Assembly: GCA_964512695.1 (NCBI GenBank)
Contig: CAZEJU010000005.1
Location: 5,668-69,667, forward strand
Length of the DNA: 64,000 nucleotides
Direction of reading: 5' to 3'
Source: an uncultured Gammaproteobacteria bacterium
GTDB taxonomy: Bacteria > Patescibacteriota > Microgenomatia > Levybacterales > UBA12049
This document shows, one piece after another, positions 27,505 through 62,601 of this stretch. The position numbers and the translations under genes were made by a program. Under the pieces are notes generated by a model. It saw nothing but the letters and a program-made list of their open reading frames with translations. It was not told where the DNA came from and ran no database searches. Numbering within the stretch: position 1 is the first letter of the stretch; each line of letters begins with the position of its first letter.

Positions 27505-27560
27505 AGGCAGAATATTATATAAAGTTATCGTATCGTGTAGTGCATAAAAAATCAAGTAAT

Positions 27561-27944: not shown

Positions 27945-27945
27945 A

Positions 27946-28494: not shown

Positions 28495-28495
28495 A

Positions 28496-30004: not shown

Positions 30005-30438
30005 CTGCTAACTACTCCTTGAGAATTAATCACAAATTGTTTTGAGGTATCGTTACTAGTAATAGAGTATGTGCCTGTAGTGCTGGGTAAACCAGTAACT
30101 TTTGTAAAAACAACTTCAGTAAAGCCTGCAATAGATATATTGGAGTTGACCCTGAATGTTTCATCAAAAGCTGCATTGCGTGTAGCATACGAATTTCCTT
30201 GAAAAAGAGTTAAGGTATTTGATCCAAAACGCACTCCCCAATTACCGTTTTGCCTACCCATCATCGCATAGATTTGAGCTTTTCTCGCTTCTCCTAAGAA
30301 TTGATCCTGTACATTGGCTACAGCGTTTTGCGTCAAGAAACGGGAAAAGAAAACTACTGAGAATGTGCCAATAGAAATTATTATCGCGATAACTAAGAGT
30401 AATTCAATAATGGTAAAACCAGCAGCTTTTCTGTACAT
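30001..30438 (-). CDS. Prepilin-type minor pilin (GspH/FimT-like)
   Basis: MYRKAAGFTIIELLLVIAIIISIG motif. Start moved to the internal Met to remove the 68-nt overlap with pilC. Confidence 0.65.
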   Translation of the reverse strand: MYRKAAGFTIIELLLVIAIIISIGTFSVVFFSRFLTQNAVANVQDQFLGEARKAQIYAMMGRQNGNWGVRFGSNTLTLFQGNSYATRNAAFDETFRVNSNISIAGFTEVVFTKVTGLPSTTGTYSITSNDTSKQFVINSQGVVSR

Positions 30439-30448
30439 ATCATGACAC

Positions 30449-31534
30449 TTAGCGCTTGATACTACTACTAAACTGATAAATCGGTCCAATAATGGAAACT
30501 GCAATAAAGGCAACAATCAACCCTACTATTATTAATATTACTGGCTCAAGAATTGTTGAAAGATTCTTGGAAGTACTATCAACTTCATCTTCAAAATAAT
30601 CCCCTAAGTAACTGAATGTCTCGTCAAGTTTACCCGTTTTTTCTCCAACGCCCAGCATCCTGACTGCAATAAGCGGAAAAAAATTAAATTTTGAATGATC
30701 AAAAATGCTCTCAAGTGTTTTGCCTCTCTCTACCCCTTTTTGAATCCTGTCTATATATTCCCTGAAGATCATATTTTGCGTGGATTCTTTTTGAATTTCC
30801 AGTGCGCGTGTAATTGGGATTGAACTTTGAAGCAAAGTACCCATATTCCTGCAGATTGACGCAAGCTGTACATTTTGTATAAACGAACCAATTACAGGAA
30901 GGCTTAGCAAAAATCTATGCCATAAAGGTTTTGCAAATTTTTGGGAGATAGTTACTTTAAACGCGATCACACAAATACCTAAAAATGCGAAGATATAAAT
31001 CCCATAATTGTTCATTACGTTTGCAAACCAAAGAAGAATTCTTGTTGTTATCGGAAGCTCTACATCCAGGGAATTAAATAGGTCAACTAACTTTGGTAAA
31101 ACAAAAATACTCAAACCAATTGCGGCTGTAAACGCGACTAAAAGCACAATAGTTGGATAGAGTAATGCGCTCTTAATTTTTTGCGAGAACTCATGGGTCT
31201 TTCTTAAATGTGTTGCAAGGTAATCCAGATTCTTCTCAAGGTTTCCTGATTGTTCCCCGACTTTTATAAGCTGCACATAAAATGGATCAAAAAATTTTGG
31301 ATAAAAAGATAATGCCTTATCAAACTCTTGCCCATTTACAACTTCTTCGCGGATTTTATGCAAAACCTTTCTGAAATATACATTATTGTTCTGCCTAGAA
31401 ACTATTTCGATTGATTCAGCCAGGGGTATTCCACTTTTAAGCATAATGGAAAGGTGCTTCGTAAACGTCAGTCTTTCAACCGCACTGACACCTCCAAAGA
31501 TTACTATGTTATCAGACATCTTAGGCAGTTTCAT
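30449..31534 (-). CDS. pilC: Type IV pilus inner-membrane platform protein PilC (GspF family)
   Basis: Two T2SS_F repeats, 3 TM helices and the typical length of 361 aa. Adjacent to pilB. Confidence 0.85.
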   Translation of the reverse strand: MKLPKMSDNIVIFGGVSAVERLTFTKHLSIMLKSGIPLAESIEIVSRQNNNVYFRKVLHKIREEVVNGQEFDKALSFYPKFFDPFYVQLIKVGEQSGNLEKNLDYLATHLRKTHEFSQKIKSALLYPTIVLLVAFTAAIGLSIFVLPKLVDLFNSLDVELPITTRILLWFANVMNNYGIYIFAFLGICVIAFKVTISQKFAKPLWHRFLLSLPVIGSFIQNVQLASICRNMGTLLQSSIPITRALEIQKESTQNMIFREYIDRIQKGVERGKTLESIFDHSKFNFFPLIAVRMLGVGEKTGKLDETFSYLGDYFEDEVDSTSKNLSTILEPVILIIVGLIVAFIAVSIIGPIYQFSSSIKR

Positions 31535-31605
31535 ATTTGAATTTAAAATTTGGACTGTTGAATACAGAATTTAATTATTAAAATCTATACTTCAGATTCT
31601 AGAGT

Positions 31606-33300
31606 CTACTCGCGCGTTGCACGTAATACTTCTTCAATAGTTGTTATTCCTTCAGCTATTTTTTCCAGACCGTCTTCGGCCATTTTTCTCATTCCTTCTT
31701 TTATCGCCATCTGTTCAATTGTGTCAGAATCTGCTTTTTGGACAATTAAAGCTCTGATTGCCTCATTCATTTCTAGAACTTCAAAGATACCTATTCTTCC
31801 CATGTACCCACTCATGTGGCAAACAGAACATCCTTTTCCTTTATATATCCTTATTGATGATTTACTTCCGTAAATTTTTCTGATCAAGTCACGGCTAAAA
31901 TCTTTTAGAAGTTCCGACAGCTCGATGTCTAGAGAATATTTACACTTCTCACAAATTTTACGAACCAAACGTTGCGCGATTACAACATTTATTGTCGATG
32001 CGACTAAAAACGGTTCTACTCCCATGTCAATAAACCTTGGAACCGCTGTCGCCGCGTCATTTGTATGCAGTGTAGAAAGGACAATATGTCCTGTTAAAGC
32101 AGAATTAATTGCAATGTCCGCAGTCTCATCATCTCTGATTTCACCAATATATATGATATTCGGGTCTTGCCTCAAAATTGAGCGCAATCCTTCCGCAAAT
32201 GTTAAATTAGTTTTTGCATTAACTTGAATCTGGTTTATACCCTCCACGTCATACTCAACGGGATCTTCAATTGTCGCGATATTTTTGTCAGGTGTGTTTA
32301 AAATTTTAAGAATTGCATACATAGTAGTTGTTTTACCGCTTCCAGTTGGCCCCGTGGACAATATCATACCGTACGGTTTATTCATGGCGTTAACCACTTT
32401 CTCATGGTCTTCTTTGCTCATTCCCAGATTAGATAAACTAAACTGCCTGAAATGTGAAGCTAAAAGCCTTAAAACAGCTTTCTCCCCATGAACTACCGGC
32501 ACCATTGAGACACGGATATCCAAATCTTCTTCAGGAAGTTGAACCTGTATCTTTCCATCCTGTGCTGAGGCATGCTCATCAGTTTGTAATGAAGCTAAAA
32601 CCTTAATCCTTAGAACCACCTGCTTATATACCTCCAAAGATAAGGTCAAAACTTCGTGCATAATCCCGTCAATCCTAAACCTTACCTGCGCGTTATCTTT
32701 TGCAGGCTCTATATGAATGTCAGACGCGTTATTCCTATATGCGTATTCGATAAGTAAATCCACTATTTTTATAATCGGTGCTTCATAGATTTTACCGTCT
32801 CCTAAAATATCAACTTGTTCAGCTAAAAGCGCATCGAATTTTTTTTGCAGATCTTTTTTATAGATTTTTAGCGATTGCTCAATATCACGCCGTATAGCAA
32901 AATATGGAATTACTTTTTTATTCACTTTGCGTTGGATAAATTCAAGCAATTTGAGGTTCGAGGTGTTCGCAAGTGCAATTTTAACATTATCTGGATTGTC
33001 TTGAAAAACGATAGCACTAAACTCTTTCGCGAGTTGCTCGGGTATTATATACGAGGCGCTATCAGGAATAGAAACAGTCTGAAGATTAATATACGGAACA
33101 TTAATCATATCTGCAATGATTCTGCCAAGCCCAACAGAATCTATTAAATCATGGTCGATAAGTGCTTCAGCAAACGATACATTTTCCTTCTCACATTCTG
33201 TAAATGTTTTGATCAGTTCTTTTTCTTCAATAACTTTCAGTTCTTTTAAAGAGTTCAATAAATCCTTGGCGAATGGTTCCATACTTTTTAATCGTATCAA
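31606..33300 (-). CDS. pilB: Type IV pilus assembly ATPase PilB (GspE family)
   Basis: N-terminal GSPII_E_N-like region, Walker A LSTGPTGSGKTTT, Asp box and His box, and a tetracysteine motif CEKCK...CSVCH. Confidence 0.9.
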   Translation of the reverse strand: MIRLKSMEPFAKDLLNSLKELKVIEEKELIKTFTECEKENVSFAEALIDHDLIDSVGLGRIIADMINVPYINLQTVSIPDSASYIIPEQLAKEFSAIVFQDNPDNVKIALANTSNLKLLEFIQRKVNKKVIPYFAIRRDIEQSLKIYKKDLQKKFDALLAEQVDILGDGKIYEAPIIKIVDLLIEYAYRNNASDIHIEPAKDNAQVRFRIDGIMHEVLTLSLEVYKQVVLRIKVLASLQTDEHASAQDGKIQVQLPEEDLDIRVSMVPVVHGEKAVLRLLASHFRQFSLSNLGMSKEDHEKVVNAMNKPYGMILSTGPTGSGKTTTMYAILKILNTPDKNIATIEDPVEYDVEGINQIQVNAKTNLTFAEGLRSILRQDPNIIYIGEIRDDETADIAINSALTGHIVLSTLHTNDAATAVPRFIDMGVEPFLVASTINVVIAQRLVRKICEKCKYSLDIELSELLKDFSRDLIRKIYGSKSSIRIYKGKGCSVCHMSGYMGRIGIFEVLEMNEAIRALIVQKADSDTIEQMAIKEGMRKMAEDGLEKIAEGITTIEEVLRATRE

Positions 33301-33407: not shown

Positions 33408-33716
33408 TTAAGTACCAATCACGGTATTAATCTTTGTAATTACATCATTGATTGATAGGTCTGATTTTATTATATAATCACGCGCTCCTAATTTCATTCC
33501 ACGATCAATATCTTCTTTTTGCCCTAAATTTGAAGCAATAATAACAGGAATCCTTTTCCAGTCCGGATTATTTTGAATTTCTTCTAAAACCGTAAACCCG
33601 TCTTTTTTAGGCATCATAAGATCCAGTAACATAACATCTGGGACAAATGTTTTGAGCGTATCAATTGCCTCCTGGCCGTCTGCTACTAATGTAACATCAA
33701 ACCCTTCCTTTGCCAT
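33408..33716 (-). CDS. CheY-like receiver domain protein lacking a canonical AUG-initiated N-terminus (see findings)
   Basis: Receiver motifs are present (VMLLDLMMPKKDG; conserved K in ASNLG). In-frame codons upstream of the ATG encode PIIKNITAEDDKFLANAYRVK, i.e. the missing beta1-DD segment, with no ATG/GTG/TTG before the upstream stop. Confidence 0.6.
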   Translation of the reverse strand: MAKEGFDVTLVADGQEAIDTLKTFVPDVMLLDLMMPKKDGFTVLEEIQNNPDWKRIPVIIASNLGQKEDIDRGMKLGARDYIIKSDLSINDVITKINTVIGT

Positions 33717-33927
33717 TTTTACGCGATATGCATTAGCGAGGAATTTATCATCTTCAGCTGTTATATTTTTTATAATTGGCTAAAAGCTTTATCGGATGAT
33801 GCAATTTTTACTTCCTAAACCTGATGTACTTCTTATGGAAAATATAGACATCGGTTTTCTATCAGCTTTTTTCGCATTTCCATAAATTTATTCTTTCAAG
33901 TTTTACAGTCCTAACACTCTTAAAGTG

Positions 33928-34308
33928 TTATAAGTAGCTTTTAACCTCTTCTGCTATTGCTGACAAACTTGCATCTGATTTGACCAGAAAATCTATGGCT
34001 CCCATTTCTTTCGCCATTTTTTTATCTTCTTCTTGCGATAAATTCGAAGTGATAATTACTTTTGTGTTTATCCCTTTTTCACGAATAACTGATAGTACCT
34101 CCCAACCATCAATACCAGGCATCATGATATCTAAAAGGACTAAGGAATAAGTCCCTGATTGCAATTCCTTTAATCCTTCCTCACCGCTGAAGACCACGTG
34201 AGCAGTAATGCCCCCTTTTTGAAGCTTTATCTCCATCGCTTTTCCCATTGCTTTTTCGTCCTCAATAATAAGAACTTTTTTTGTATTGTTACTATTTACA
34301 CTTTCCAA
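33928..34308 (-). CDS. Single-domain response regulator (CheY-like receiver)
   Basis: KKVLIIEDEKAMGKA..., LVLLDIMMPGIDGWEV, conserved K (SNLSQ..K). 126 aa. Confidence 0.8.
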   Translation of the reverse strand: MESVNSNNTKKVLIIEDEKAMGKAMEIKLQKGGITAHVVFSGEEGLKELQSGTYSLVLLDIMMPGIDGWEVLSVIREKGINTKVIITSNLSQEEDKKMAKEMGAIDFLVKSDASLSAIAEEVKSYL

Positions 34309-34359
34309 ACTGTAATATTCACCCTCTTTCTTTTTATATTTTCTCTTCTGTTTGAGAAT

Positions 34360-34782
34360 TTAATAGAGCTGCACTTCTTTATCTTGCAAATCAAAAATCC
34401 CATTTAATTTTTCAACTATTTCTTCTAGGGAATTTTCTGATTTAACAAGATAATAAGACGGCTGGTCGGTTACTACATGAGTTAACCTTTCGTCATTTGT
34501 ATCAAAATTCGTAAGAATAACCACTGAAGCATATTTACCCCATTTATTCTCACGTAACTTATGTAACATAGTCAGACCATCCATTTTGGGCATTTCAATA
34601 TCCAGTAAAATTGCGTTCGGATGATTTTTTAATGCAGCATCCAGCCCAGTTGCTCCGTCCCCAGCTTCTAAAACTAAAAACCCTAAGCTTTCTAGTTTCA
34701 CGGCAATTGCTTGCCTAAGAGAGGCATCATCTTCAATGATAAGAATGGACTTACTCGTTTCCAAATTATTTTGATTTGCCAT
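34360..34782 (-). CDS. Single-domain response regulator (CheY-like receiver)
   Basis: KSILIIEDDASLRQA..., ILLDIEMPKMDGLTML. 140 aa. Confidence 0.8.
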   Translation of the reverse strand: MANQNNLETSKSILIIEDDASLRQAIAVKLESLGFLVLEAGDGATGLDAALKNHPNAILLDIEMPKMDGLTMLHKLRENKWGKYASVVILTNFDTNDERLTHVVTDQPSYYLVKSENSLEEIVEKLNGIFDLQDKEVQLY

Positions 34783-35170
34783 ATAAGCATTCTTTTAGAG
34801 CCTCAACTATTTGATCTAAGCGAAAATTCGCCTTAACAAAGTACTTATTCACCCCCAGCTGCATATACATTCTCACTTTTTCTTCGCTTGCCGTATTACT
34901 TACAACAAAAATTGGAATATGTTTCCATTTTGAATCAGAACTTTTGATTTTTGTAACCAAATCTAATCCGTCATCTTTACCTAACAAATAGTGGTCTAAC
35001 CAAATTCCATCCACCTGACTAAGTTCTTCCAAATAAGACATGGCTTGTTGTACACTTCTTGCGGTAGCCACATTAATATTGTTATTCTCAAGCTTTATCT
35101 TAATCACTTCTAACAATGGAATTTCATCCTCAATAACTAAAATCGTTTTTGTCTCCATAAAGATAGTCAC
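34766..35170 (-). CDS. Single-domain response regulator (CheY-like receiver)
   Basis: KTILVIEDEIPLLEV..., IWLDHYLLGKDDGLDLV. 134 aa, overlapping the next receiver gene by 17 nt. Confidence 0.75.
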   Translation of the reverse strand: MTIFMETKTILVIEDEIPLLEVIKIKLENNNINVATARSVQQAMSYLEELSQVDGIWLDHYLLGKDDGLDLVTKIKSSDSKWKHIPIFVVSNTASEEKVRMYMQLGVNKYFVKANFRLDQIVEALKECLYGKSK

Positions 35171-35179
35171 CTCCTTCCT

Positions 35180-37381
35180 TCATTTTAATCTTCTATTACC
35201 GTCTTTCTTCACCATTCCAGAAAGAGGCAATAACACAAAAAACGTTGTACCTTTATTTTCTTCCGAATAAAACCATATTTTACCTCGGCAATGATCTATC
35301 AATGATTTTACAAGATACAATCCTAACCCAGTTCCATCAGTATTTTGTACTCTGACATTATCTGCCCTAAAAAGTTTTTCGAAAACTTTTCCTTGTTGCA
35401 TGGTGGTTATTCCGATACCATTATCCTCAACTTCTATAAGAAGACTATTCTCTTCTGCTTTTACCCCACCAACTGCTTCTTCCTGCTGGATAGTTTTTAA
35501 AGAGATTTTTATTTCTCCGTTTTCATTGGTGTATTTGATTGAATTTGTAAGCAAGTTCTGGAGTATGATTGTAGTTAAGTTAGGATCAAGCATGATTTGG
35601 GGCATATCATCTTTCTCGAGGACTACTCTTAATTTTTTCTCATCTATCATAGGCTTTGACTCATCCAGGATAGAACGGGTTAATCTCACAATATCAACCA
35701 TTTCAGGTTCAATCATGTAATTGCCTGTTTCAATTCTCGACACATTCAGTAGTGCATTTACCAGCTTTGACAGGCGCTGACTTCCTTGATAGGCTTCCTG
35801 GATAAACTTTTTTTGCTCATCTGTTACATTACCTGCATCTCCAGATAAAAGAAGTTCACAATACCAATTGATAGTTGAGAGAGGCGTACGCAGCTGATGA
35901 GATGCTAAAGAGATAAATTCTGACTTAGCCCTGTCTATTTGCTTTTCTCTCGTAACATCATGCAGAACAGTAACCGTGCCCAATAGTTTATTCCTCAGTA
36001 GAATGGGAGTAATCGTAACTAATACCGCAATCTTTTCTCCATTTTTTTTGGTATAGATCACTGCACTGCTGATCTTCTCTTTACGGGATAGCACTTTATT
36101 TATAATTCTTTCCGCAGGAGGTATGACTCTTCCATTTTCATCTTCCGCCTTAATAGCTTCAATTAATTTTCTCTCTACCAGATCCTGTGGGGTATATCCT
36201 AATAACTCTTCTATTGCTTGATTTATCCTCACAATTTGTCCCTTCTCATCTGTGACGATCAGTCCGTCCCCAATACTTGATATAAGAACTTCATCATATA
36301 TGCGTTCTTCCTCAAGATGGGTTATATCCTCTTCTGTCCCTATAAAGCCAATTATCCTATCTTCCTTTTTTATGGGTGAAATATGGGTAATCACGGTGTA
36401 ATATTCACCATTTTTTCGTCTATTCTGTAGCTCCCCATCAAATCCTTCACCTGCTCGTATTGTTTGCCATAGTTTTTGGTACAAGTCTTGAGTCATAATA
36501 CCACCCCATAAGCGAGGCGTATTATTTTTCATCTCCTCAAAACTAAAACCTGTCATTTGCTGAGCTTTTTTATTTGCAAAAACAACAAACCCGTTTACAT
36601 CAGTTATCACAACGTGATTGCGGGAGTCTTGAATTGCTTGCAACATAATATTCTTCTCTGTTTGTTCATTATTAAAATCAGATTCTGTTAAAATAGTATC
36701 ATTTATTCTTGGATAGTGTTCCTCAAAACGCATGTTCTGAAAAGGAGTATTTCTGCGGGCTAGAAGCACATATGTCTCATCAATAAACCCCTGCGGACCA
36801 CAAATAAAGAAAAGATCCTCCGCAAAATTGATTCCTGATGGAAAAAGTTCATTTGATATTTTTCCAATATGGTTTACAAATACGATATTTTGCTGTGCAG
36901 TTATCCTGGAAAGCTCTTCTGAGAAAGCGCTTTTTTCAGAAGCTGAGTTAACATACATAAGTGTTAAATTTGGATTCATCTCTTCCTGGAGAGAGTTAAT
37001 AATTGAAAGAAATGGTGCAATCCCGACTCCGCCTGCGATCATAACTATATTTTGTTTTTGATTTTTAAGTGAATAGGAACTCCCAAATGGACCGAGTATT
37101 TTTACCCTACTTTGAAGTGGAAGTTCTAAAAGCGTTTTTATATATCCTGAATCTGAATTGCGAAAAAGAATAGAGCAGGATTTTTTATTCAAAGAACTGG
37201 AGATAATAGAGAAAGCTCTTCTCCCTCCTTTTAGATCCGGGTATAAAAGCTCGGACACAATTACCCAGACATATTGACCGGGAGAAAAACTAAAATCTTG
37301 TTCAAAGAAGAAGGTAATGACTGTCGTGTCTTTTGCAACTGTTTTCTTTTCCTGAATTGTCGCCCACATTTCATTACTCAT
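35180..37381 (-). CDS. Hybrid sensor histidine kinase: N-terminal ferredoxin-NADP-reductase-like FAD/NAD(P)-binding oxidoreductase module, then 2 PAS domains, HisKA and HATPase_c
   Basis: FNR-family motifs RRAFSIISS (RxYS FAD site), MIAGGVGIAPFLSII (GGxGxxP NAD site) and FFICGPQGF. Two PAS-like segments. H-box ASHQLRTPLSTI, N-box LLTNSIKYT, G1 VEDNGIGI, G2 GTGLGLYLVKSL. Confidence 0.8.
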   Translation of the reverse strand: MSNEMWATIQEKKTVAKDTTVITFFFEQDFSFSPGQYVWVIVSELLYPDLKGGRRAFSIISSSLNKKSCSILFRNSDSGYIKTLLELPLQSRVKILGPFGSSYSLKNQKQNIVMIAGGVGIAPFLSIINSLQEEMNPNLTLMYVNSASEKSAFSEELSRITAQQNIVFVNHIGKISNELFPSGINFAEDLFFICGPQGFIDETYVLLARRNTPFQNMRFEEHYPRINDTILTESDFNNEQTEKNIMLQAIQDSRNHVVITDVNGFVVFANKKAQQMTGFSFEEMKNNTPRLWGGIMTQDLYQKLWQTIRAGEGFDGELQNRRKNGEYYTVITHISPIKKEDRIIGFIGTEEDITHLEEERIYDEVLISSIGDGLIVTDEKGQIVRINQAIEELLGYTPQDLVERKLIEAIKAEDENGRVIPPAERIINKVLSRKEKISSAVIYTKKNGEKIAVLVTITPILLRNKLLGTVTVLHDVTREKQIDRAKSEFISLASHQLRTPLSTINWYCELLLSGDAGNVTDEQKKFIQEAYQGSQRLSKLVNALLNVSRIETGNYMIEPEMVDIVRLTRSILDESKPMIDEKKLRVVLEKDDMPQIMLDPNLTTIILQNLLTNSIKYTNENGEIKISLKTIQQEEAVGGVKAEENSLLIEVEDNGIGITTMQQGKVFEKLFRADNVRVQNTDGTGLGLYLVKSLIDHCRGKIWFYSEENKGTTFFVLLPLSGMVKKDGNRRLK

Positions 37382-47262: not shown

Positions 47263-47516
47263 AACAATAAATTCTAAAAACTATAATCACTTGGATTAAC
47301 TTACTGCTAATTTATACACTATGTTGTGAAATCTTGTCAATAACCTATAGTTTATTAAATTGGTTTCAATAAAATATTGTAAAATAAGTAAAACTTATAA
47401 AAATAATATTTTTAAAAGAAGTATTTGATACTTTTGATATGCTTTTGATACCTTTTACATTTCTTTCACTTGACATTAACATAACTTCTTCTATACGATA
47501 ATCTTAAGCCGGAATC

Positions 47517-50597: not shown

Positions 50598-52442
50598 TTA
50601 CTTAGGCACACACTGAAGATTCACGAGTTGGAGAGCTTTGCTTGAACTTGATACAGAAGGCTGCCTACATTCATACGCACTGCCTACAGGACCTGGAGGA
50701 ACATTCGTAGGAACAATTGGTTGTTGGTCTTCTCCGTCATGGATACCTATGGAAAGTGTCTGCTCATTTTGGTCTTCTGTAATCTCAAAAGGATCTGATA
50801 AAGCAGCCACTTTACCGCCTATCCGGACAATAATTCTATAATGACCAGGTACAATAATTAAATAACAATATCCATCACTACTTGTCGTTGCTGTAGGGGA
50901 ATACATCCTTTTTGGAAATATAGTGAACTCGGCACCCGATACACCTTTTTCACCTGCGTCGGCTTGTCCATTTTTATTAGCATCAGAAAAAACGAAACAT
51001 CGAAACCGAACTACAAGCCGACGTGGACGTTGGGTAGGTGTAGGAGGAATCTGGGTTACCGTCGCTGTAGGCTGAGGGGTAACTGTTAGCGTCGCTGAAG
51101 GCCTTGGAGTCAATGTCGGAGTGCTACCAGGCGGAGGCGTAGTTGTAGCTGTCGGTACAGGTGTGTTAGTAACAGTCACACCTCCACAAGCAGGATCATC
51201 TAATATTTTTTTCATATTTAAACGCTTTCCGCCTAAAGAAGTATCTATAGGATCTCCATTACGCACAAGACAATCTAGAACCTGATCTGGTGTTAATGAT
51301 TTCTGTGAGAGTAATAAGGCCACAGCCCCCGCTACATGCGGAGATGCCATAGATGTTCCTTGCAGGCTTTTATATCCTCCTCCCTTATACGTAGACACTA
51401 TAGTAGTACCTGGAGCCCCGATCTCTACTTTAGATCCATAGTTAGAAAATGATGCTCTCCTGTCATTCTGATCTGTAGCACCTACAGTAATAACTCCATT
51501 ACATGAAGCAGGTGTAAATGCACCAGCATCTGTCCCATCATTCCCCGCAGCTACAACAACTACTGTCCCCTGGCTACGAGCATAATTTACAGCATTTTGA
51601 TAAACGGACGCACACGGACCCCGTCCTCCCAAACTCATGTTTATTACTTTTGCACCATTTTTTGCAGCCCACTCAATACCTCTACTAATACCCGATGAAG
51701 GACCAGAACCATTATCTCCCAATACTTGAACAGCCATTAACCTAACATCCCAATTAATACCGCTTACCCCAGTAGAATTATTTGTCAAAGCACCAACTGT
51801 ACCTGAGACATGTGTCCCATGTCCTTGTCTGTCAATAGGATCTCCGTCAGCAGATGTGAAATCCGGACCTTTTATAATGTCCCTTGGTAAATCTGGATGA
51901 TTATAATCTACTCCAGTATCTAATATTGCCGCTATAATAGCTTTTCCACCAGTAGTTTTATCCCAAGCTTCCTCTAAACCAATTTTTTTATAATGCCACT
52001 GTTGTGCATAATATTGATCATTCGGCAACTTCGTAGCCTTAACTATTACATCTACCTCGACAGATTTAATTTCTTCATAGTCTATTATTATATTTCCAAC
52101 TTTCTCTAAATCTGTTCCTTTTTTAAATTCTAAAATATAGAAATTTTTTAATTGTGCGTCATCGCCATTGAATAATTTTTTATGTCCAATAACTCCTATA
52201 TTATTAAATTTTTGTTTTATTACTTCTGGACTCTTACCTTCTACAAATTCTACAAGGAGTCTGTCAGAGACATACTCTACTCCCTCAGCGATAAAAAAAG
52301 TTTTTCTGGGTACTTTCTTTCCTGTCTGTGCCAATGAAGTTACTAATAACACTAAAATACTAAAAGCTACCAATATGAATATAATTATCCACTTTTTATT
52401 TAAAGTCTGCAGTTTAGACATATCTATTTCATTGTTACACAT
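50598..52442 (-). CDS. Subtilisin-like serine protease (peptidase S8) with an N-terminal anchor/signal, an I9 propeptide and a C-terminal PT-linker plus extension domain
   Basis: Catalytic triad motifs AILDTGVDYNHPDL (D), HGTHVSGTVGA (H) and GTSMASPHVAGAVAL (S). PT-rich linker TNTPVPTATTTPPPGSTPTLTPRPS. Confidence 0.85.
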   Translation of the reverse strand: MCNNEIDMSKLQTLNKKWIIIFILVAFSILVLLVTSLAQTGKKVPRKTFFIAEGVEYVSDRLLVEFVEGKSPEVIKQKFNNIGVIGHKKLFNGDDAQLKNFYILEFKKGTDLEKVGNIIIDYEEIKSVEVDVIVKATKLPNDQYYAQQWHYKKIGLEEAWDKTTGGKAIIAAILDTGVDYNHPDLPRDIIKGPDFTSADGDPIDRQGHGTHVSGTVGALTNNSTGVSGINWDVRLMAVQVLGDNGSGPSSGISRGIEWAAKNGAKVINMSLGGRGPCASVYQNAVNYARSQGTVVVVAAGNDGTDAGAFTPASCNGVITVGATDQNDRRASFSNYGSKVEIGAPGTTIVSTYKGGGYKSLQGTSMASPHVAGAVALLLSQKSLTPDQVLDCLVRNGDPIDTSLGGKRLNMKKILDDPACGGVTVTNTPVPTATTTPPPGSTPTLTPRPSATLTVTPQPTATVTQIPPTPTQRPRRLVVRFRCFVFSDANKNGQADAGEKGVSGAEFTIFPKRMYSPTATTSSDGYCYLIIVPGHYRIIVRIGGKVAALSDPFEITEDQNEQTLSIGIHDGEDQQPIVPTNVPPGPVGSAYECRQPSVSSSSKALQLVNLQCVPK

Positions 52443-52465
52443 GTATAAATGTTTTGTAAAGTTTG

Positions 52466-53944
52466 CTAGTTACGTGGTGTACAAATGAGATTAATCATCT
52501 GCAAAGCTTTCTTATTCGCCGTTCCTGGAGGCAAGATGCATTGATAACCAGGGTCACCCGGTAGCCCAACTACCGGTGTAAGCGTAGGAGTTGCTAAAGG
52601 AGTCGGAGTAGGAGTTGCTCTACTGACAGTACATGCGGAATCACTAACAAGTCTTTCTACGTTTAACCGTTTTCCGATTGGCTTATCTGTTGAAATAGAA
52701 TCTGCATTTCTTACTATGCAATCTTCTACTTGCTGTGGAGTAAGATACGGATTAAGAGAAAGTAATAATGCTGCTGCTCCTGTTACATGGGGAGCAGCCA
52801 TGGATGTTCCTTCCCACTCAAAATATTTTAACCCACCTAATGATCGTGATCTTGTCGAATAAGTCGAGTATATTTTTACTCCCGGTGCTGCTACGTCTAC
52901 GACAGAACCGAAATTAGAGAACGAAGCACGTTCATCAGATTGTGTACTCGCACCTACCGTTATGACATTATTACAATTAGCAGGCACCTGACCCGCTGCA
53001 TCTTCACCATCATTTCCTGCAGATACCACCACTATAACATTCTTTCGAATAGCATAATCAATCGCATCCTGAAAGAGACTTAAGCATCGTTCTTTGTACC
53101 CCAAACTTAAATTAAGTACTCGTGCGCCATTATCCACTGCATAATTCATTCCACGCGCCACTTCAAGCTTACTACCACTACCATTCCAGTAAAGGACCTG
53201 AACTGCCATCAAACGAATATTCCAATTCATTCCTGTTACTCCTTTACCATTATTTGCTACAGCACCTATGACACCTGCTAAGTGAGTACCATGACCGTTC
53301 TCGTCCATAGAGTCTCTATCCCCACTATTCCAGCTCGTATCTTCACCGTTAATTATGTCACTCGGTAGGTCTTCATGAGTATAATCTATTCCTGTATCCA
53401 GTACAGCAACTATGATATTCTTTGATCCAGTAGCTATATCCCATGCATCTTCCATTCCTATCTTTGACATATTCCATAAACGAGATCCATAAGAGGGATC
53501 GTTGGGAGATATATCTATTTTAATAACTGCATCGCCTTCTATAGTTTCTATCTCTTCCATTTTTTCAAGCTGCTTCCCAGCTTGTTCTAAAGTAACTCCT
53601 TTGGCTAAAAATAGCGCATAATAATTCTTCATAGGACCATCTATATCTTTATATACCCTCTCCTGTTTCTCGACTCCAGCATCAAGAAGCTTTTGAAGAA
53701 CACTTTTCTTTTTCGCAGTTTCCATGATATCGTCTGGACTATAACCTTCTTTAAAACGAACTAGTAGCCTATCAGGGATATATTTTGTACCCTGCTCAAG
53801 TTTCAAAAGCTTTTTATGGGAATTTTGATTTTTAGTATCAGAAGAAACAATCGTAGATACATAAATAACAAAACAAAAAATAAGAATTAAAAAAATAAAA
53901 AAGATTAACCGTTTTGATTGTAATAACTGCAATATTTGTTCCAT
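52466..53944 (-). CDS. Subtilisin-like serine protease (peptidase S8), tandem paralogue of the 50598..52442 gene
   Basis: AVLDTGIDYTHEDL, HGTHLAGVIGA, GTSMAAPHVTGAAAL. The C-terminal motif is shared with the paralogue (KALQ.(I/V)NL.C.P). Confidence 0.85.
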   Translation of the reverse strand: MEQILQLLQSKRLIFFIFLILIFCFVIYVSTIVSSDTKNQNSHKKLLKLEQGTKYIPDRLLVRFKEGYSPDDIMETAKKKSVLQKLLDAGVEKQERVYKDIDGPMKNYYALFLAKGVTLEQAGKQLEKMEEIETIEGDAVIKIDISPNDPSYGSRLWNMSKIGMEDAWDIATGSKNIIVAVLDTGIDYTHEDLPSDIINGEDTSWNSGDRDSMDENGHGTHLAGVIGAVANNGKGVTGMNWNIRLMAVQVLYWNGSGSKLEVARGMNYAVDNGARVLNLSLGYKERCLSLFQDAIDYAIRKNVIVVVSAGNDGEDAAGQVPANCNNVITVGASTQSDERASFSNFGSVVDVAAPGVKIYSTYSTRSRSLGGLKYFEWEGTSMAAPHVTGAAALLLSLNPYLTPQQVEDCIVRNADSISTDKPIGKRLNVERLVSDSACTVSRATPTPTPLATPTLTPVVGLPGDPGYQCILPPGTANKKALQMINLICTPRN

Positions 53945-53972
53945 GATATACCCATCAGCTTATTGCTTTCAA

Positions 53973-56900
53973 TTATTTAGTTGAAGTCGTTGGCACTGCC
54001 ATGGTTTGATTTTGTTGGACATTATTTTGGGAAACTGGAATCTGAACACTAGTAGAATCATTTTTTTCTATTTCTCCTAAAACAAATTTTCCAGCTTCTA
54101 ATTTAGATGTAAGATAAGCTTTTGTTTCCAAAAGACTAAACCCTCCTAAAAGAATCAAAGGTAGTACAGAAGACAATCTTTGTATTCCTGCATTTACATC
54201 ACTTTTATTTTCTGAACTTAAAAGACCGAGTATTTCATTTATTATATTTATATCTCCTAAAATCCATGTTTTTCTATCAACGCCAGTTGGAGGTTCATTT
54301 AGTTGATAATGTTCTATCCACTCTTTTTTTACAGCTTCATAATCTTCTATACTTACTTGTTGAAGCTGATTCGTCGAGGGGAGAAAGATATGCTCTGGGT
54401 TATTTATATCTTTTGTTTTTGCCATTTGTTCAGAAGCATGTAAGAGAGCATCTGCTGTCGAGTTTCCTTGGTTTTTATCCTGAATAAGTTTCTCATGTAC
54501 TTCTTTTATTTTTTCTTTTTGATTTTCTAAAACAGTCTGATCAGGTTCTGACAATGAAATAAGAATGTTTTTTAATTTTTCAAGTTCATTCTTCTCAGCA
54601 GTTTTTGATGTTACTGTTGCATAATCAAACCGTGCTATATCTCGCATTGACGGAATTGACATATTAATCATTGTTACATAGACGTTCTCAGGTGCTTTTT
54701 GAGGTTTTGAAGCAGCTAATGAATCAAGCGATGAAGATTCAATATCATCTTCTTCAGGTAAGTTTACTGCTTGTGCTTGAGCTTTTTCAGCATGTTGGGA
54801 ATTTGTGGAAGTTTTAACCGTAACTAATGTGTCTTCTTCTTCCTCCTTTACCCTTATTTCCTCAAGTACGGTTTTACCTGCTTCACTCTTTGCACGTAAA
54901 TACGCTACAATCTCATCTTTTGTGAATCCCCCGAGTAATAAGAAAGGTAAAATATTTCCAACCTGTTCCATTCCTTGTTCAATCTGTGCAGGATTATCCG
55001 AACTCAACAACGTCATAATCTCGTTAATTTGAGCAATATCTCCCTCGATCGTTTTCTTCTTGTTTAAAGAACTCTCTTCTTCCATATTCTTATAATTCTC
55101 TACCCACATCTTTTTAACTGCTTCATAATCTTCTAAACTGACTTGCTGTATTCTATTATTCTGCGGAAGTATAGTCGCTGAAGGAGTAATAATAGTTGCT
55201 TGTGCGGCAACTATTGTCAGCATATCGACAGCGAGTAAATCTCCTTTTTCCTTTGCTTCAACGAGTTTTTCTTTAATTGTTTGCATTTCTTGAGGCGTGG
55301 CTCTGTTTCCTGACACATCTAATATTCCTGAAAGTAGAAAACTAGCAAGTTGGCTTCCTTGTTTTTGAGCTTCAATTAATTTATCTTTTACCTTTGTGAA
55401 TCTGTCTTTCTCTTTAACCTCTGTTAGGATAGAAGGATTATCCAATTTCATTAAAGTCGTTTGTAAAGCACCCGTATCTACTTGAGTGATAGCCTTAGAT
55501 AAAATAGAGTTTGCAGCTTTATCGCCATTGAGACTTGCTTCTATTAATTTTTCTTTAATATCTCTTAACTGTTCACCTTTTAAGGTAGTTGTATCTTTAT
55601 TGGAAGAAAGCTCTTTTGTTGAAGAGAGAATCGTAGTCGCCAGTTCATTGCCTTGTTGACTTTCTTTTATAAGAACTTCTCTTAGTTCTTTTAATTTTTC
55701 TTTTTCTTGAGAAGACTCAACTTTTTCTGGATTAGCAATTTGTGTCAGAACATTATTAATTCCGCTATTGATCTGGTGATTCATGTTCATAATGTTAGAA
55801 TTTGAGGCTATATTAGCCGCGTGAAGAATGGAATTTGCTACATTATTACCCTGCTGACTAGTTTGAACTAATCTATCACGAATCTTCGTAATTCTCTCTC
55901 TGTCTAGGGTATTCGTAACAATTGTAGGATTTGCTACCTGGATCAAAGTCTCACGCATGCGGGTCACCTCAGATTGACTACGCGTATCGCTAGATCTACT
56001 TAATGTCTCATATTTAGCGATATCGCGAATTGTAGGAATAGAAAGGTTGGTCAAATTCAGCAGCTCATTATTTACAAAGTTTTGTCTTAACAAGTCTTGG
56101 TTTACCTGCTGAGTAGATGAATTAACATTCGCAATCGGAAGCTGCAAAGCTTGACCTGCACCTTTTGGAAGTTCAGGAATCGCATATTGTTTAAAAGGTA
56201 AACGCGCTGTTCCAGTAGGCTGAGATGGAGGACCCACAGGAGGAATTGCAGGAGGAGGTGTTACACGATTACGAACTATATTAAGTACCTGTTGCATTCC
56301 AGCTCCCTCAGTTGTGAAAAAAGACCAAGCATGATCAAGAAATATTCGTAATAATATCCATGGCACAAGAATAACCATCCATAACATTACTAATGCAACA
56401 AGATATAGAGCAAAAGTATCAGGGTTATTAATACTGTTATCGAGTGCTACTTGTTGCCCAGGCCCTCCTAGAAGAATGTTAATCGAAGTAGGGAATACGA
56501 TTCTTGATTGAGGACTATCCAGATTAAATTGCATAGGAATACGTGTTCTCCATAAAGCAACTAATCCGGCAAGGAAAATTGAAAAAAGTGGACCATATAA
56601 AAGCCACCGAAAGAATTCTCCTACCCAAATCTTCGCAGTATTACGTAATGGATAGTAGAACAATAAAAGAGGGAAAACAGGTGAAACAATAATAAAAAAC
56701 CATAAGATAACCTTTCGGATAATAAGGGTAATAACCATTGTGTAATATGTTAAAGCTGTTATTTTTACGAAAAGTAAAGACATAAAAGCAGATTCAGCAT
56801 TCATATCACCTGATTTTCGAAGACCGAAGAATGGACCATACTGCCAACCTACATACAATAAATCAGTCTGGGAAATACACGTAGGAGGACAAGAACGGTT

Positions 56901-57353
56901 AATATCACTACGAAGAAAAAATCCTTGAACAGCATCAAAACTTTGGTAAATAAATTGAACAAGACTAAAAGAAAAATATATCAATACAAAAACCCAAATA
57001 AAACGAGGTATTACCTTTTTAATCGTCAGACTTTTTCCCCGTGTAGCAATAAGGATAAACGCTGTAGCCATAACAAATAAAATCATAAGAATATAAATTA
57101 AATTTCTTATAAGTGCCCAGAAAGGAAGAATGGGATTTTGGAGTCCCGCTGTTGAAGACGCCCACTGATAATCTCGCAAGGTCCAGTCAAGTAACAAACC
57201 GGAACGAGCCGCATTTTTACCGGTAAAGGTAACTTCAGGATCTACGACCCAAGTATCATCAGGCACTGCTGGAGGTGTCTGCGCGAAAACCGTAAAAGCA
57301 GAAACTACAAAGAGAAAACATGATAAAAACAAAACAGGCAGGAACTTTCTCAT
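53973..57353 (-). CDS. Large (1126 aa) polytopic membrane protein: signal peptide, about 8 TM helices, then a long alpha-helical region built from duplicated modules of ~38-aa repeats
   Basis: N-terminal TM block of ~350 aa. Repeated (K/R)(E/D)KL(I/V)(E/Q)...QGN(E/N)(L/V)A..(I/L)L units. Two modules, each starting with (L/M)SIP..RDIA(K/R) and ending with QQVS(L/I)EDYEAVKK.W...(L/I)LLGGF. Confidence 0.6.
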   Translation of the reverse strand: MRKFLPVLFLSCFLFVVSAFTVFAQTPPAVPDDTWVVDPEVTFTGKNAARSGLLLDWTLRDYQWASSTAGLQNPILPFWALIRNLIYILMILFVMATAFILIATRGKSLTIKKVIPRFIWVFVLIYFSFSLVQFIYQSFDAVQGFFLRSDINRSCPPTCISQTDLLYVGWQYGPFFGLRKSGDMNAESAFMSLLFVKITALTYYTMVITLIIRKVILWFFIIVSPVFPLLLFYYPLRNTAKIWVGEFFRWLLYGPLFSIFLAGLVALWRTRIPMQFNLDSPQSRIVFPTSINILLGGPGQQVALDNSINNPDTFALYLVALVMLWMVILVPWILLRIFLDHAWSFFTTEGAGMQQVLNIVRNRVTPPPAIPPVGPPSQPTGTARLPFKQYAIPELPKGAGQALQLPIANVNSSTQQVNQDLLRQNFVNNELLNLTNLSIPTIRDIAKYETLSRSSDTRSQSEVTRMRETLIQVANPTIVTNTLDRERITKIRDRLVQTSQQGNNVANSILHAANIASNSNIMNMNHQINSGINNVLTQIANPEKVESSQEKEKLKELREVLIKESQQGNELATTILSSTKELSSNKDTTTLKGEQLRDIKEKLIEASLNGDKAANSILSKAITQVDTGALQTTLMKLDNPSILTEVKEKDRFTKVKDKLIEAQKQGSQLASFLLSGILDVSGNRATPQEMQTIKEKLVEAKEKGDLLAVDMLTIVAAQATIITPSATILPQNNRIQQVSLEDYEAVKKMWVENYKNMEEESSLNKKKTIEGDIAQINEIMTLLSSDNPAQIEQGMEQVGNILPFLLLGGFTKDEIVAYLRAKSEAGKTVLEEIRVKEEEEDTLVTVKTSTNSQHAEKAQAQAVNLPEEDDIESSSLDSLAASKPQKAPENVYVTMINMSIPSMRDIARFDYATVTSKTAEKNELEKLKNILISLSEPDQTVLENQKEKIKEVHEKLIQDKNQGNSTADALLHASEQMAKTKDINNPEHIFLPSTNQLQQVSIEDYEAVKKEWIEHYQLNEPPTGVDRKTWILGDINIINEILGLLSSENKSDVNAGIQRLSSVLPLILLGGFSLLETKAYLTSKLEAGKFVLGEIEKNDSTSVQIPVSQNNVQQNQTMAVPTTSTK

Positions 57354-59523: not shown

Positions 59524-61860
59524 ATGAACCTGCCCATCAAATTACCTATTTTCGGAAAAAAAATTAAAGTCGAATATTTCCTCGCCTTACTATTACGTGA
59601 TGAAAAAGTAACAGCCATTACATTTAAACAGAGTGGAGGAGTTATTACCATCATAGGTACCGCTGACGAACAACTACAGGATTCTCTTGAACAAACAAGC
59701 ATCGATGATCTCACGAATGCATTAGATAAAGCAATTAGTCATGCTGAAGAAAAAATTCCTGAAGATATTCAGACACAAAATACCGTTTTTGGAGTTAAAG
59801 AAAGTTGGGTTGAAGAAAAAACGATTAAAAAAGATTACCTTAAAAAATTAAAGTATGTTTCTGAAAAATTGAATCTAGTTCCTATTGGCTTCATCGTTCT
59901 TTCTGAAGCGATAGCACATTTAATAAACGAAGAAGAAGGCGCTCCACTATCCGCATTACTAACTGATATAGGTACACGCACGGTTACTGTTAGTTTATTT
60001 CGAGCAGGGAAACTTATTGAAACAAAATATAAAAATATAGAAACAACAGCAATGGAAGCTGTTGATAGGGCATTAAAAGAATTTGAGCGTGTAGAAATAT
60101 TCCCATCACGAGTTATTCTCTTCCATGCAGTTCCCTCACATGAAACACATAAGAATGATGTATTAGCTCAAGAATTTATCGCTCATCAATGGAGTAAAGG
60201 ATTACCATTTCTTCATGTTCCACAGATTTCAATTTTGCCTTCAGGATTTGATGGAAAAGCTATTGTGGCAGGTGCTGCAACGCAACTTGGTTTTTCACTA
60301 TCCGGGATTACTATTGCTAATCATTCAGATATTCAGACAGTTCAACAAAGAGATTTAGAACACCATAGCCGAAAACATCACAGTCCAGACACTTCGGAAG
60401 AAAATGAAACGAAAGATATAAAACAAAGTGTAGAAGATAATGTTACCCCTGATAATTTCGGTTTTGTAATGAATAAAGATATATTAATTGATAAGATTGA
60501 AGAAACGGATAAAGCAGATCTACAAGATACTACTACACAAAACCCTCGTGAAGAATTAGAGAATAGAGAATTACACAATGAGGTTGAAGCTCATGAAGAA
60601 TTAGTTGAAGAATCAGAACATGAAACTTCTACAAGTAAGAAGAAACTTTTTTCCTTTCCAAAATTCCTTCCAAGTTTTGCATTACTAAAAAATAGACATC
60701 TTCCTTTTACAGACAAAATTTCTATAAAAAACCGTGTTTTATTTATACCTCCTTTTATTTTATTAGGGGTAATAGGATTATTGCTCCTCTATATGTTTAC
60801 AGTTAAGGCTACTGTTACACTAGGAATTGTCCCTATACAAGCTGATGAAACAACAAAGATTACATTCGTATTAGCAGAAGAAAACAACTTCGAACAAAAT
60901 AGTATAAAAGCAACACCTATAACAGCAGAACTTGAAGGGTCTGTTAGCACTGAAACTACAGGAGAAAAAGAAGTAGGAAATAAAGCAAAAGGAACCGTTA
61001 CTATATATAATAGTGGAAGTTCGAAACGAACGCTCAAAGAAGGAACCACTGTCACTTCAGATAACGGTCTCAGCTATATTACAGATAAAGAGATAAGCGT
61101 TGCATCTGCATCTGGAGATATTTTTTCGGGAATTAAGTCCGGAACAGCACAAGTAGCTATTACTGCAAAAAAAATAGGAACTGAATATAACTTACCTTCT
61201 AATACTAAATTTAGTATTGAAGGAGCAACCGACGTTGCAGCAAAAAATGATGCGGCGTTTTCAGGTGGATCAAAAAAGAAAGTAACTGTGGTTACGAAAA
61301 AAGATACCGATAAACTTCTCGCTGAATTACCAAAAAAGTTAGAAGAGAATGCGAAACAAACCCTCACTGGTAAACTAGGAAATGATGAAGTGTTAATAGG
61401 AGATTTTAGAGAAATTGAAATAACGAAGAAGACATTCGATAAGGATATTGATGAAGAAGCTAAAACTGTAAATCTTAAAGGTACAGTTATCTTTACAACG
61501 TATATGTACAACCGTAGTAATATGCAAGATTTCATCAAATCACTTTTATCGAAAAAATATTCGGATGGAAACTATAACTTTAATGAAGATTTTTCTGTAA
61601 ATATATCAGGCATTAAAAAGGTCGACGATACGGAAATAACAAGTGTAGCAGAGATAAAAACTGGACTTATTCCTAAATTAGATACAAAGGCTATAGCTAA
61701 AAATCTGGCAGGTAAATCTTTCAGTCAAGCTCAAGAGTATAGTAAGTCCCTAAAACAAGTTCAACAACTCCGTATACAACTCCATCCTGACTTACCGCTT
61801 ATTCCTAAACTACTTCCTCGTTTGGATAAAAATATAACAGTTGTTATTCAACCAAACTAA
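59524..61860 (+). CDS. Hypothetical bitopic protein (~400-aa cytoplasmic N-domain, one TM helix, ~360-aa extracytoplasmic C-domain)
   Basis: Single TM helix (VLFIPPFILLGVIGLLLLYMFTV) with an acidic low-complexity segment before it. The N-terminal sequence pattern loosely resembles that of the 25879..26967 protein. Confidence 0.45.
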   Translation: MNLPIKLPIFGKKIKVEYFLALLLRDEKVTAITFKQSGGVITIIGTADEQLQDSLEQTSIDDLTNALDKAISHAEEKIPEDIQTQNTVFGVKESWVEEKTIKKDYLKKLKYVSEKLNLVPIGFIVLSEAIAHLINEEEGAPLSALLTDIGTRTVTVSLFRAGKLIETKYKNIETTAMEAVDRALKEFERVEIFPSRVILFHAVPSHETHKNDVLAQEFIAHQWSKGLPFLHVPQISILPSGFDGKAIVAGAATQLGFSLSGITIANHSDIQTVQQRDLEHHSRKHHSPDTSEENETKDIKQSVEDNVTPDNFGFVMNKDILIDKIEETDKADLQDTTTQNPREELENRELHNEVEAHEELVEESEHETSTSKKKLFSFPKFLPSFALLKNRHLPFTDKISIKNRVLFIPPFILLGVIGLLLLYMFTVKATVTLGIVPIQADETTKITFVLAEENNFEQNSIKATPITAELEGSVSTETTGEKEVGNKAKGTVTIYNSGSSKRTLKEGTTVTSDNGLSYITDKEISVASASGDIFSGIKSGTAQVAITAKKIGTEYNLPSNTKFSIEGATDVAAKNDAAFSGGSKKKVTVVTKKDTDKLLAELPKKLEENAKQTLTGKLGNDEVLIGDFREIEITKKTFDKDIDEEAKTVNLKGTVIFTTYMYNRSNMQDFIKSLLSKKYSDGNYNFNEDFSVNISGIKKVDDTEITSVAEIKTGLIPKLDTKAIAKNLAGKSFSQAQEYSKSLKQVQQLRIQLHPDLPLIPKLLPRLDKNITVVIQPN

Positions 61861-61875
61861 GAACAATCATGAAAT

Positions 61876-62601
61876 ATGCCTTATATCTATAAAAAACATG
61901 ATAAACAAAAGACAAGAAAGAAAGTTAGATATGCTGGGTTGAGTCTTTTTGTCTTTGGTTTGATGCTACTTTTATATATCTCCTTCCCACTCATCTCATG
62001 GGCTTTCATTTTCGAGCCTGCTTTTGCATCGGGCTCAATGCAGTCCCCTATACCACGAGCAACTGTACTCCATAAAGACGCTATAAAAACACTTATAGCT
62101 TCAGCAGTAGATTCATTTAGTAAAGATTATACAGATGCACAGAACTGGTTTCCTTCATATGTTCTTCATAAAGAAAAAACTGATTCTATAATTACAACCT
62201 ATAACCTAAGTATCCCAAAAATAGGCGTCAAATATGCAAACGTTTCAACGGTAGATACAGATTTGTCAAAACACCTTGTACATTACCCGGGTACTCCTCT
62301 TCCCTCTAAAAAGGGAAACGCAGTCATCTTTGGGCATTCCACATTACCTGGGCTTTTTAATCCCACGGATTATAAAACTATTTTCGCCAAAGCACATACT
62401 CTAAAAATTGGTGATACATTTTTAATCACCATGAATGCGAAAGAGTATAACTACCAAATTGAGAATATTACTATTACAACTCCTGACGACACGTCTATAT
62501 TTTTTCAAATGACAGATGCCAGCTATCTTACACTTGTTACATGTACACCTCCTGGAACTACATGGAAGCGGCTTATCATTAAAGCGAAGCTTATACAGTA
62601 A
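61876..62601 (+). CDS. Sortase-family transpeptidase
   Basis: N-terminal TM anchor, the His motif (AVIFGHSTLPG), catalytic TLxTC (YLTLVTCTPPG) and a downstream Arg (WKR). Confidence 0.65.
   Translation: MPYIYKKHDKQKTRKKVRYAGLSLFVFGLMLLLYISFPLISWAFIFEPAFASGSMQSPIPRATVLHKDAIKTLIASAVDSFSKDYTDAQNWFPSYVLHKEKTDSIITTYNLSIPKIGVKYANVSTVDTDLSKHLVHYPGTPLPSKKGNAVIFGHSTLPGLFNPTDYKTIFAKAHTLKIGDTFLITMNAKEYNYQIENITITTPDDTSIFFQMTDASYLTLVTCTPPGTTWKRLIIKAKLIQ

Follow-up and report, generated by a model that had tools for sequence, protein, structure and literature searches.

The Patescibacteria are dependent on host cells; the type IV secretion system (T4SS) that they possess is, to our knowledge, the only T4SS known to be essential for growth. 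A survey published in 2025 described the Patescibacterial T4SSs as MPF-FATA-like systems that bear pilins and in most cases lack a relaxase, and reported VirB6 homologues to be 'scarce' in Microgenomatia, for which its authors suspect extreme divergence. Two Levybacteria genomes that we checked in its supplementary table are listed with VirB4, TrsD, two VirB2 and a T4CP (one of them also with VirB1), and with neither VirB6 nor VirB3. The T4SS of Ca. Southlakia epibionticum is essential and likely non-conjugative. According to a 2025 review, an 'extended VirB6' has at least five transmembrane (TM) helices and large hydrophilic domains, the role of the extra domains not being known; the same review states that the T4SS of Streptococcus suis exports a subtilisin. 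Here we analysed an operon on a 64-kb stretch of contig CAZEJU010000005.1 (the window), which encodes a membrane protein of 1126 amino acids (aa), named BIG, and two subtilisins, named S8a and S8b. On balance, we consider it probable that BIG serves a T4SS-like apparatus of Levybacteria as a channel or platform of the extended VirB6 type, that the Sec-exported subtilisins are its accessory surface enzymes, and that the operon in the window represents part of a larger conserved module after rearrangement.

Similarity of the membrane domain of BIG to VirB6 was revealed by family models, plasmid searches and profile alignment. Scanned singly at E ≤ 1, 36 of 72 BIG N-terminal domains matched the Pfam family TrbL (PF04610), the best at E = 4.4e-6, and no other family recurred in more than three of these domains; one relative, L063, scored 15.8 bits against the TrbL model (cut-off 25.9). 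Precomputed PF04610 matches exist for a few BIG homologues and a PF19590 match for one. A tblastn search of 7.3 Gb of plasmids with one BIG N-domain (E ≤ 10) gave 17 weak matches; among the 15 listed, 14 fell on genes annotated as 'type IV secretion system protein' and one on the start of a record without an annotated feature. All seven plasmid matches that were inspected (six MPF_T-typed) occupy the place of VirB6 or one close to it: where the flanking genes are annotated, VirB5 or VirB3 precedes them and VirB8/VirB9 comes next. The seven encoded proteins match TrbL strongly (E ≤ 6e-33, best 1e-41). Alignment of the BIG family profile with these seven VirB6 proteins by hhalign gave a probability of 90% (E 1.6e-6, 162 columns) and covered residues 81–259 of the window BIG, including an R/K-K-x-x-L...P-x-F...P-x-R...W core, while the control alignment with MurJ and PilC from the window, two unrelated membrane proteins, reached 0.4%. 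The TrbL matches in relatives, the profile alignment and its controls therefore make homology to VirB6 well supported, and the membrane domain of BIG can be regarded as a remote, very divergent member of the TrbL/VirB6 family. A first-pass annotation, made from the letters of the window, had regarded the large protein as a dedicated membrane scaffold in a system without a name and had named a TrbL/VirB6-like identity as an outcome that would speak against its proposal; a remote match of this kind is what we obtained.

The operon consists of three open reading frames (ORFs) on the minus strand, separated by gaps of 28 nt (BIG to S8a) and 23 nt (S8a to S8b), as the first-pass annotation had described with 20–30 nt. 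As BIG has 642 homologues, many of them at E = 0, the genes are real. These homologues originate mostly from metagenome-assembled genomes (MAGs) of Levybacteria/Patescibacteria, as do nearly all homologues of the window proteins, and the BIG family, carried by ~140 species, is restricted to Levybacteria-type Patescibacteria; the window stems from an ultrasmall bacterium of this type. The parts of BIG are listed below; pLDDT is the residue confidence of the AlphaFold2 model.

53973–57353, minus strand: BIG, putative extended VirB6-like protein of 1126 aa (ORF; 642 homologues)
57282–57353, minus strand: putative signal peptide, residues 1–24 (...VFA↓QT; hydrophobic segment 4–22; helix 4–17, then a low-confidence stretch; cleavage site predicted from the sequence)
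57132–57281, minus strand: conserved, probably extracytoplasmic N-terminal segment, residues 25–74 (WVxDPEVTFxGKNAARSG..LDWTL; invariant residues)
56310–57131, minus strand: polytopic TrbL/VirB6-like membrane domain, residues 75–348 (hhalign, Pfam hits in relatives, AlphaFold2, hydropathy)
56106–56264, minus strand: Pro-rich linker, predicted disordered, residues 364–416 (pLDDT <50; sequence)
55179–56066, minus strand: helical-hairpin repeat array A, residues 430–725 (repeats in the sequence; pLDDT 85–93)
54828–55178, minus strand: C-module copy 1, residues 726–842 (LPxxNRxQxVSxEDYEAVKKMW...GGF..EIVAYL+AK; invariant residues; pLDDT ~90)
54387–54686, minus strand: repeat array B, residues 890–989, one repeat unit (sequence repeats; pLDDT)
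54051–54386, minus strand: C-module copy 2, residues 990–1101 (two matched stretches in P0001; near-invariant residues)

The signal-peptide-like N-terminus of BIG had been recognised in the first-pass annotation, whereas its count of about eight TM helices was too high: hydropathy analysis counted six segments beyond the signal peptide, and the AlphaFold2 model has five long helices. As in VirB6, at least five TM helices are combined with an N-terminus outside and a large outer loop between TM2 and TM3; a Cys-containing outer loop spans residues 138–188. Conservation is highest in the N-terminal 350 residues, with 57 invariant columns among 72 sequences. Residues D38, V41, G45, R50, Y62 and W64 are invariant among 82–120 homologues, and the window BIG keeps every family-invariant residue.

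The C-terminal ~700–750 aa, which follow the Pro-rich linker, are predicted with high confidence to be all-helical (pLDDT 85–95), in agreement with the ~750-aa alpha-helical region noted before. They comprise two super-modules, each of which opens with a 'PTMRDIA' motif, continues with helical-hairpin repeats (five in the first, one in the second; unit consensus 'ANP..(E/K)xE+..L+E+L..ES..GN.LA..IL') and closes with a C-module of ~110 aa bearing invariant Q, V, W, Y and GGF. The invariant residues of copy 1 are Q736, V738, W750, Y754, G808, G809, F810, Y818 and K822. Among 1.84e9 cluster representatives, 306 clusters carry the C-module. Pfam and NCBIfam searches returned only noise for the window BIG and no match for its C-terminal region, PDB sequence-profile searches with whole-protein and N-domain profiles returned nothing, and no known relatives of the repeats and the C-module were found.

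The gene neighbourhood of BIG was examined in a set of 80 related loci using our own ORF calling and phmmer, Pfam/NCBIfam searches of representatives, and domain-specific queries. Denominators vary (77, 67, 62, 59), the counts of downstream proteases being based on the 62 loci with enough downstream DNA. The usual gene order is metS (minus strand) / hrcA – grpE – dnaK – (dnaJ) – VirB2-like pilin (PF18895) – BIG – ClpB – [protease] – (dnaJ) – small membrane protein – second ClpB-like – nusA. A gene of the T4SS_pilin family PF18895, whose product also matches the NCBIfam model Mbov_0395 pilin-like conjugal transfer protein, is located immediately upstream of BIG in 72/77 loci, and the distance to a clpB gene downstream is at most 2.5 kb in 66/67. 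The dnaJ gene comes after the protease gene in about 12 loci (e.g. L035, L047, L059, L068, L070–L072, L077, L079, L080 and L082), and therefore the pilin–BIG–ClpB–protease block lies inside the dnaK–dnaJ operon. Within the dnaK operon, the VirB2-like pilin and ClpB accompany the BIG family constantly, which the proteases do not. A literature search yielded no description of such a pilin–VirB6–ClpB–protease cluster.

A neighbour-joining tree of BIG N-domains separated two groups, 'short' (~750–850 aa) and 'long' (at least 1000 aa). In about 20 long-group loci/species the ClpB encoded next to BIG carries a C-terminal tail of 350–550 aa composed of BIG-type helical repeats (e.g. L007:13848–18143 and L005:13722–18023); residues ~890–1260 of the L007 ClpB match the BIG repeats at a BLAST E of 9e-20. 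ClpB is a cytoplasmic protein. Because it bears the same repeats, and because of the five-helix AlphaFold2 model and the known topology of VirB6, the helical-repeat domain of BIG is probably cytoplasmic as well. Long BIG homologues were also scanned for extra domains that would place the C-terminal domain on one side of the membrane, and gave only sub-threshold matches to Tri-helical and Ldt_C.

These data could also be explained by a ClpB-coupled export or quality-control module built from T4SS parts, in which a VirB6-like channel and a pilin were recruited to the heat-shock regulon and ClpB docks on the repeats to thread unfolded or aggregated proteins out to anchored proteases. The location of pilin, BIG, ClpB and protease inside hrcA–grpE–dnaK...dnaJ, the nearly constant clpB gene, the repeat tail of ClpB and the presence of groES–groEL 3.5 kb from the window operon are all in line with it. 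We nevertheless consider this explanation unlikely: the mechanism is without precedent, the proteases are mostly missing just where ClpB carries the repeats, unrelated insertions can occur in the hrcA–dnaK–clpB superoperons of compact genomes, and in the window and its closest relative BIG has neither ClpB nor DnaK beside it. Furthermore, CIRCE, the HrcA operator, gave no match at up to three mismatches anywhere in the window, including the region upstream of groES–groEL (47263–47516).

A gene for a membrane-anchored protease is found on the same strand within ~4.3 kb downstream of BIG in 34/62 loci, and none of 59 loci has one upstream, so that a recurrent link of BIG with secreted proteases is real. 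These 34 proteases belong to three classes, namely 19 true S8 proteases, seven M4 thermolysin-like proteases and eight proteins of a third type, which contain an HEVLGH motif and in which Pfam finds no catalytic domain. All classes have an N-terminal anchor and a Pro/Thr-rich (PT) linker, and all but four of the proteins (three S8, one M4) carry a C-terminal Cys motif with the consensus Y.C..DP.C......IQLC.L.CTP. The distribution is uneven: a protease is present in 29/37 loci with a short BIG and in 5/25 with a long one.

The C-terminal Cys motif, ~25 aa long and common to the S8, M4 and third protease types, occurs in the window at 50601–50681 and 52469–52549 as a two-Cys variant. It has no Pfam or NCBIfam model and may act as a tag for retention or sorting that is specific to the lineage. 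The third type of protein in the protease slot (L063:16309–18192 and seven similar loci) has an N-domain of 450 aa that no Pfam model matches. It further contains the HEVLGH motif, an SdrD_B domain and the C-terminal Cys motif of the other types, and may represent an unclassified metallopeptidase. Many S8 and M4 genes are preceded by stand-alone ORFs (150–183 aa) whose products combine a TM anchor with a prodomain-like region, e.g. L040:15007–15528 and L057:10486–11028.

The first-pass annotation had interpreted BIG as a dedicated membrane scaffold of an unnamed system that could display or process both subtilisins at the cell surface. Its protease link stands, as a protease is encoded in the cluster at 55% of the loci and the BIG and S8 genes are directly adjacent in the window and in a 67%-identical relative. 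In addition, cleavage of the prodomain would strip the N-terminal anchor, so that retention of the mature enzymes would need another element such as the C-terminal Cys motif. The scaffold itself fares less well: no protease was found in 20 of the 25 loci of the long subgroup, the membrane domain is VirB6-like, and Cys residues in the outer loops of BIG, which might serve docking by disulfides, do not co-vary with the presence of a protease. Since pilin and ClpB, and not the proteases, are the constant partners, display of surface proteases is a minority reading, which we likewise consider unlikely. The outcomes that the first-pass annotation had itself named as speaking against its idea are largely those obtained: BIG is a remote member of the TrbL/VirB6 family, and the exact order BIG–S8–S8 is kept only in the closest relative (67% identity). 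The original observation is thus partly confirmed, its interpretation partly supported, and the claim of an unnamed system half right.

The features of the two subtilisins are as follows.

52466–53944, minus strand: S8a, subtilisin of 492 aa (Pfam Peptidase_S8, E 5e-65)
Within S8a, minus strand, in order: N-terminal TM anchor 53849–53905; prodomain-like region 53495–53812; catalytic domain 52700–53422; PT linker; C-terminal Cys motif 52469–52549 (hydropathy, Pfam, motif comparison)
50598–52442, minus strand: S8b, subtilisin of 614 aa (Pfam Peptidase_S8, E 1.5e-56; SdrD_B, E 1.2e-7)
Within S8b, minus strand, in order: TM anchor 52332–52388; catalytic domain 51258–51947; PT linker; SdrD_B Ig-like domain 50820–50996; C-terminal Cys motif 50601–50681 (hydropathy, Pfam, motif comparison)

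Both proteins score far above the Peptidase_S8 cut-off of 21.8 bits (S8a 220 bits, S8b 192 bits) and contain the triad motifs DTG, HGTH and GTSMA, and they are active-looking S8 subtilases. They are paralogues with 47% identity, each with one N-terminal hydrophobic anchor and a PT linker, which bears out the earlier description as paralogous membrane-anchored subtilisins. A region of ~100 aa between the anchor and the catalytic domain is conserved across S8a and S8b. The I9 propeptides assigned to them earlier were not recovered: the Inhibitor_I9 model did not match either pro-region at E ≤ 1, and a weak Fervidolysin_NPro-like match (E 0.017) was obtained for S8a and none for S8b. The SdrD_B domain is present in S8b only. 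The best NCBIfam match of both proteins is T7SS_mycosin (TIGR03921), with 185.2 bits for S8a and 172.6 bits for S8b; identity as type VII secretion system mycosins was rejected, as these scores are below the equivalog cut-off of 278.75 and no Ecc genes are present in the window.

Compared with the related loci, the window is an outlier. Pilin, ClpB and dnaK genes are missing beside BIG only here and in the 67%-identical relative JAYRIM01. There, the BIG gene is located between a gene for a divergent AlaRS and that for LepA, 3.5 kb from groES–groEL, with the two S8 genes directly downstream. The window BIG belongs to the long, protease-poor subgroup, yet two proteases with the cluster-type C-terminal motif are directly adjacent. 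The window therefore provides a second, independent arrangement of the BIG–protease pairing, which strengthens a functional link between the two.

This arrangement bears on a further alternative, namely that a VirB6-like gene and ordinary secreted subtilisins are neighbours in a compact genome without a shared function. Occurrence of the exact arrangement in only two lineage-mates, the housekeeping surroundings (AlaRS, LepA, GroES/EL) and the export signals that the S8 proteins possess themselves are compatible with such a coincidence. The strict downstream position of the proteases, the substitution of three protease classes in one slot and the recurrence of the pairing, differently arranged, in the lineage of the window argue against it, and we judge it rather improbable. 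Highly improbable, and disfavoured here, is the view that the locus was left over from an integrated conjugative element. VirB6/TrbL proteins are typical of conjugation machineries, but neither relaxase nor integrase genes nor VirB4 and VirD4 were found in the window, the GC content of the locus is similar to that of its surroundings, the chromosomal position inside the dnaK operon is fixed over ~80 species, and all family-invariant residues are kept.

Several results weigh against the VirB6-type interpretation that we favour. The window BIG itself has no Pfam TrbL match even at E ≤ 1 and does not reach the gathering score. Genes for VirB4, VirB3, VirB8 and VirD4 were recognised neither within 10 kb of the 80 related loci nor in the 64-kb window, and a search of the six-frame translated window with the pilin hidden Markov model gave no match. 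The proteases are absent in 28/62 loci (45%), which makes them accessory, and the Sec signals of S8a and S8b mean that no special secretion system is needed for their export. Finally, the side of the membrane on which the C-terminal domain lies is ambiguous between methods, since hydropathy and charge bias fit six TM helices with this domain outside, and the five-helix AlphaFold2 model and the repeats common to ClpB fit a location inside.

By analogy with VirB6 of characterised T4SSs, BIG would form a membrane channel or an assembly platform for the VirB2-like pilin or for the passage of substrates. S8a and S8b would be exported by Sec via their N-terminal signal-anchors; they are members of a group of envelope proteases (S8, M4 and the third type) that have the anchor/PT-linker layout in common and recur in this gene cluster. 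Most likely, these proteases would act outside the cell beside the apparatus, on the pilin, on surface proteins or on the surface of the host cell. The operon in the window would be a lineage-specific rearrangement in which the VirB6-like gene and the proteases were kept together and parted from pilin, ClpB and dnaK.

BIG may be the VirB6 that profile surveys miss in Microgenomatia. It is a concrete candidate, encoded away from virB4 and beside a pilin gene, with a C-terminal domain that is unprecedented and, in many species, common to ClpB. The recurrent interchangeable protease slot suggests a surface proteolytic activity tied to the apparatus, which could bear on how epibionts attack or feed on their hosts. 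One can further speculate that Levybacteria maintain a VirB2-like pilin and an extended VirB6-like channel in the HrcA/DnaK heat-shock operon, coupled via shared repeats to ClpB and with anchored proteases outside, as a T4SS-derived, ClpB-powered protein extrusion machine for quality control or host delivery, of which the window would hold a minimal channel-plus-protease remnant; we hold this extension to be improbable.

The window has a GC content of ~35% and includes genes for GroES/EL, LepA, SecA, a short AlaRS, a sortase and type IV pili. The type IV pilus cluster (27001–33300, minus strand) encodes a PilB-like ATPase, PilC and several N-methyl pseudopilins, of which one contains LVIVD repeats. 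At 33408–37381 (minus strand), four tandem receiver-only response regulators are located beside a hybrid of an FAD/NAD-binding oxidoreductase module and PAS-HisKA-HATPase. At 59524–62601 (plus strand), the gene for a protein of 778 aa, in which a Baseplate_J-like/GlxA barrel domain was recognised (E 7e-7), is directly followed by a sortase gene, and this pair is kept in the closest relative. A PT-rich secreted protein without a Pfam match (205–1086, minus strand) ends in a different Cys motif (CPVPERVLNVKVECPFCE).

Among described systems, the extended VirB6 proteins (PF04610) resemble BIG in their polytopic domain, in the large outer loop after TM2, in the P-x-F...P-x-R...W core and in a large hydrophilic C-terminal extension; in relatives of BIG, the adjacent VirB2-like pilin gene is a further VirB6-like trait. 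Unlike known VirB6 proteins, the window BIG is too divergent for Pfam and is encoded far from any VirB4, its C-terminal repeats and C-module are without known relatives, and in its relatives the gene is set in a dnaK/clpB operon. With the MPF-FATA-like T4SS of Patescibacteria the BIG loci share the phylum and VirB2-like pilins, which are unusual in a monoderm; the absence of a relaxase, which suggests a non-conjugative role, applies to both. The Patescibacterial loci, however, are centred on virB4/trsD near dnaA, whereas the BIG locus lacks such an ATPase. The 89K T4SS of S. suis offers a precedent for a Gram-positive-type T4SS functionally tied to a subtilisin-like protease, SspA-1; this protease is a secreted T4SS effector, whereas the N-terminal signal-anchors of the window S8 proteins imply export by Sec. 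Mycosins have a C-terminal membrane anchor. In type VII (ESX) systems the mycosin MycP is likewise a membrane-anchored subtilisin encoded with a polytopic membrane secretion component, but the S8 proteins of the window differ in their N-terminal anchor, in scores below the TIGR03921 cut-off and in the lack of Ecc genes. The distance from virB4, the heat-shock operon setting, the repeats common to ClpB and the interchangeable protease slot are, as far as we found, undescribed and set the BIG module apart from these systems.

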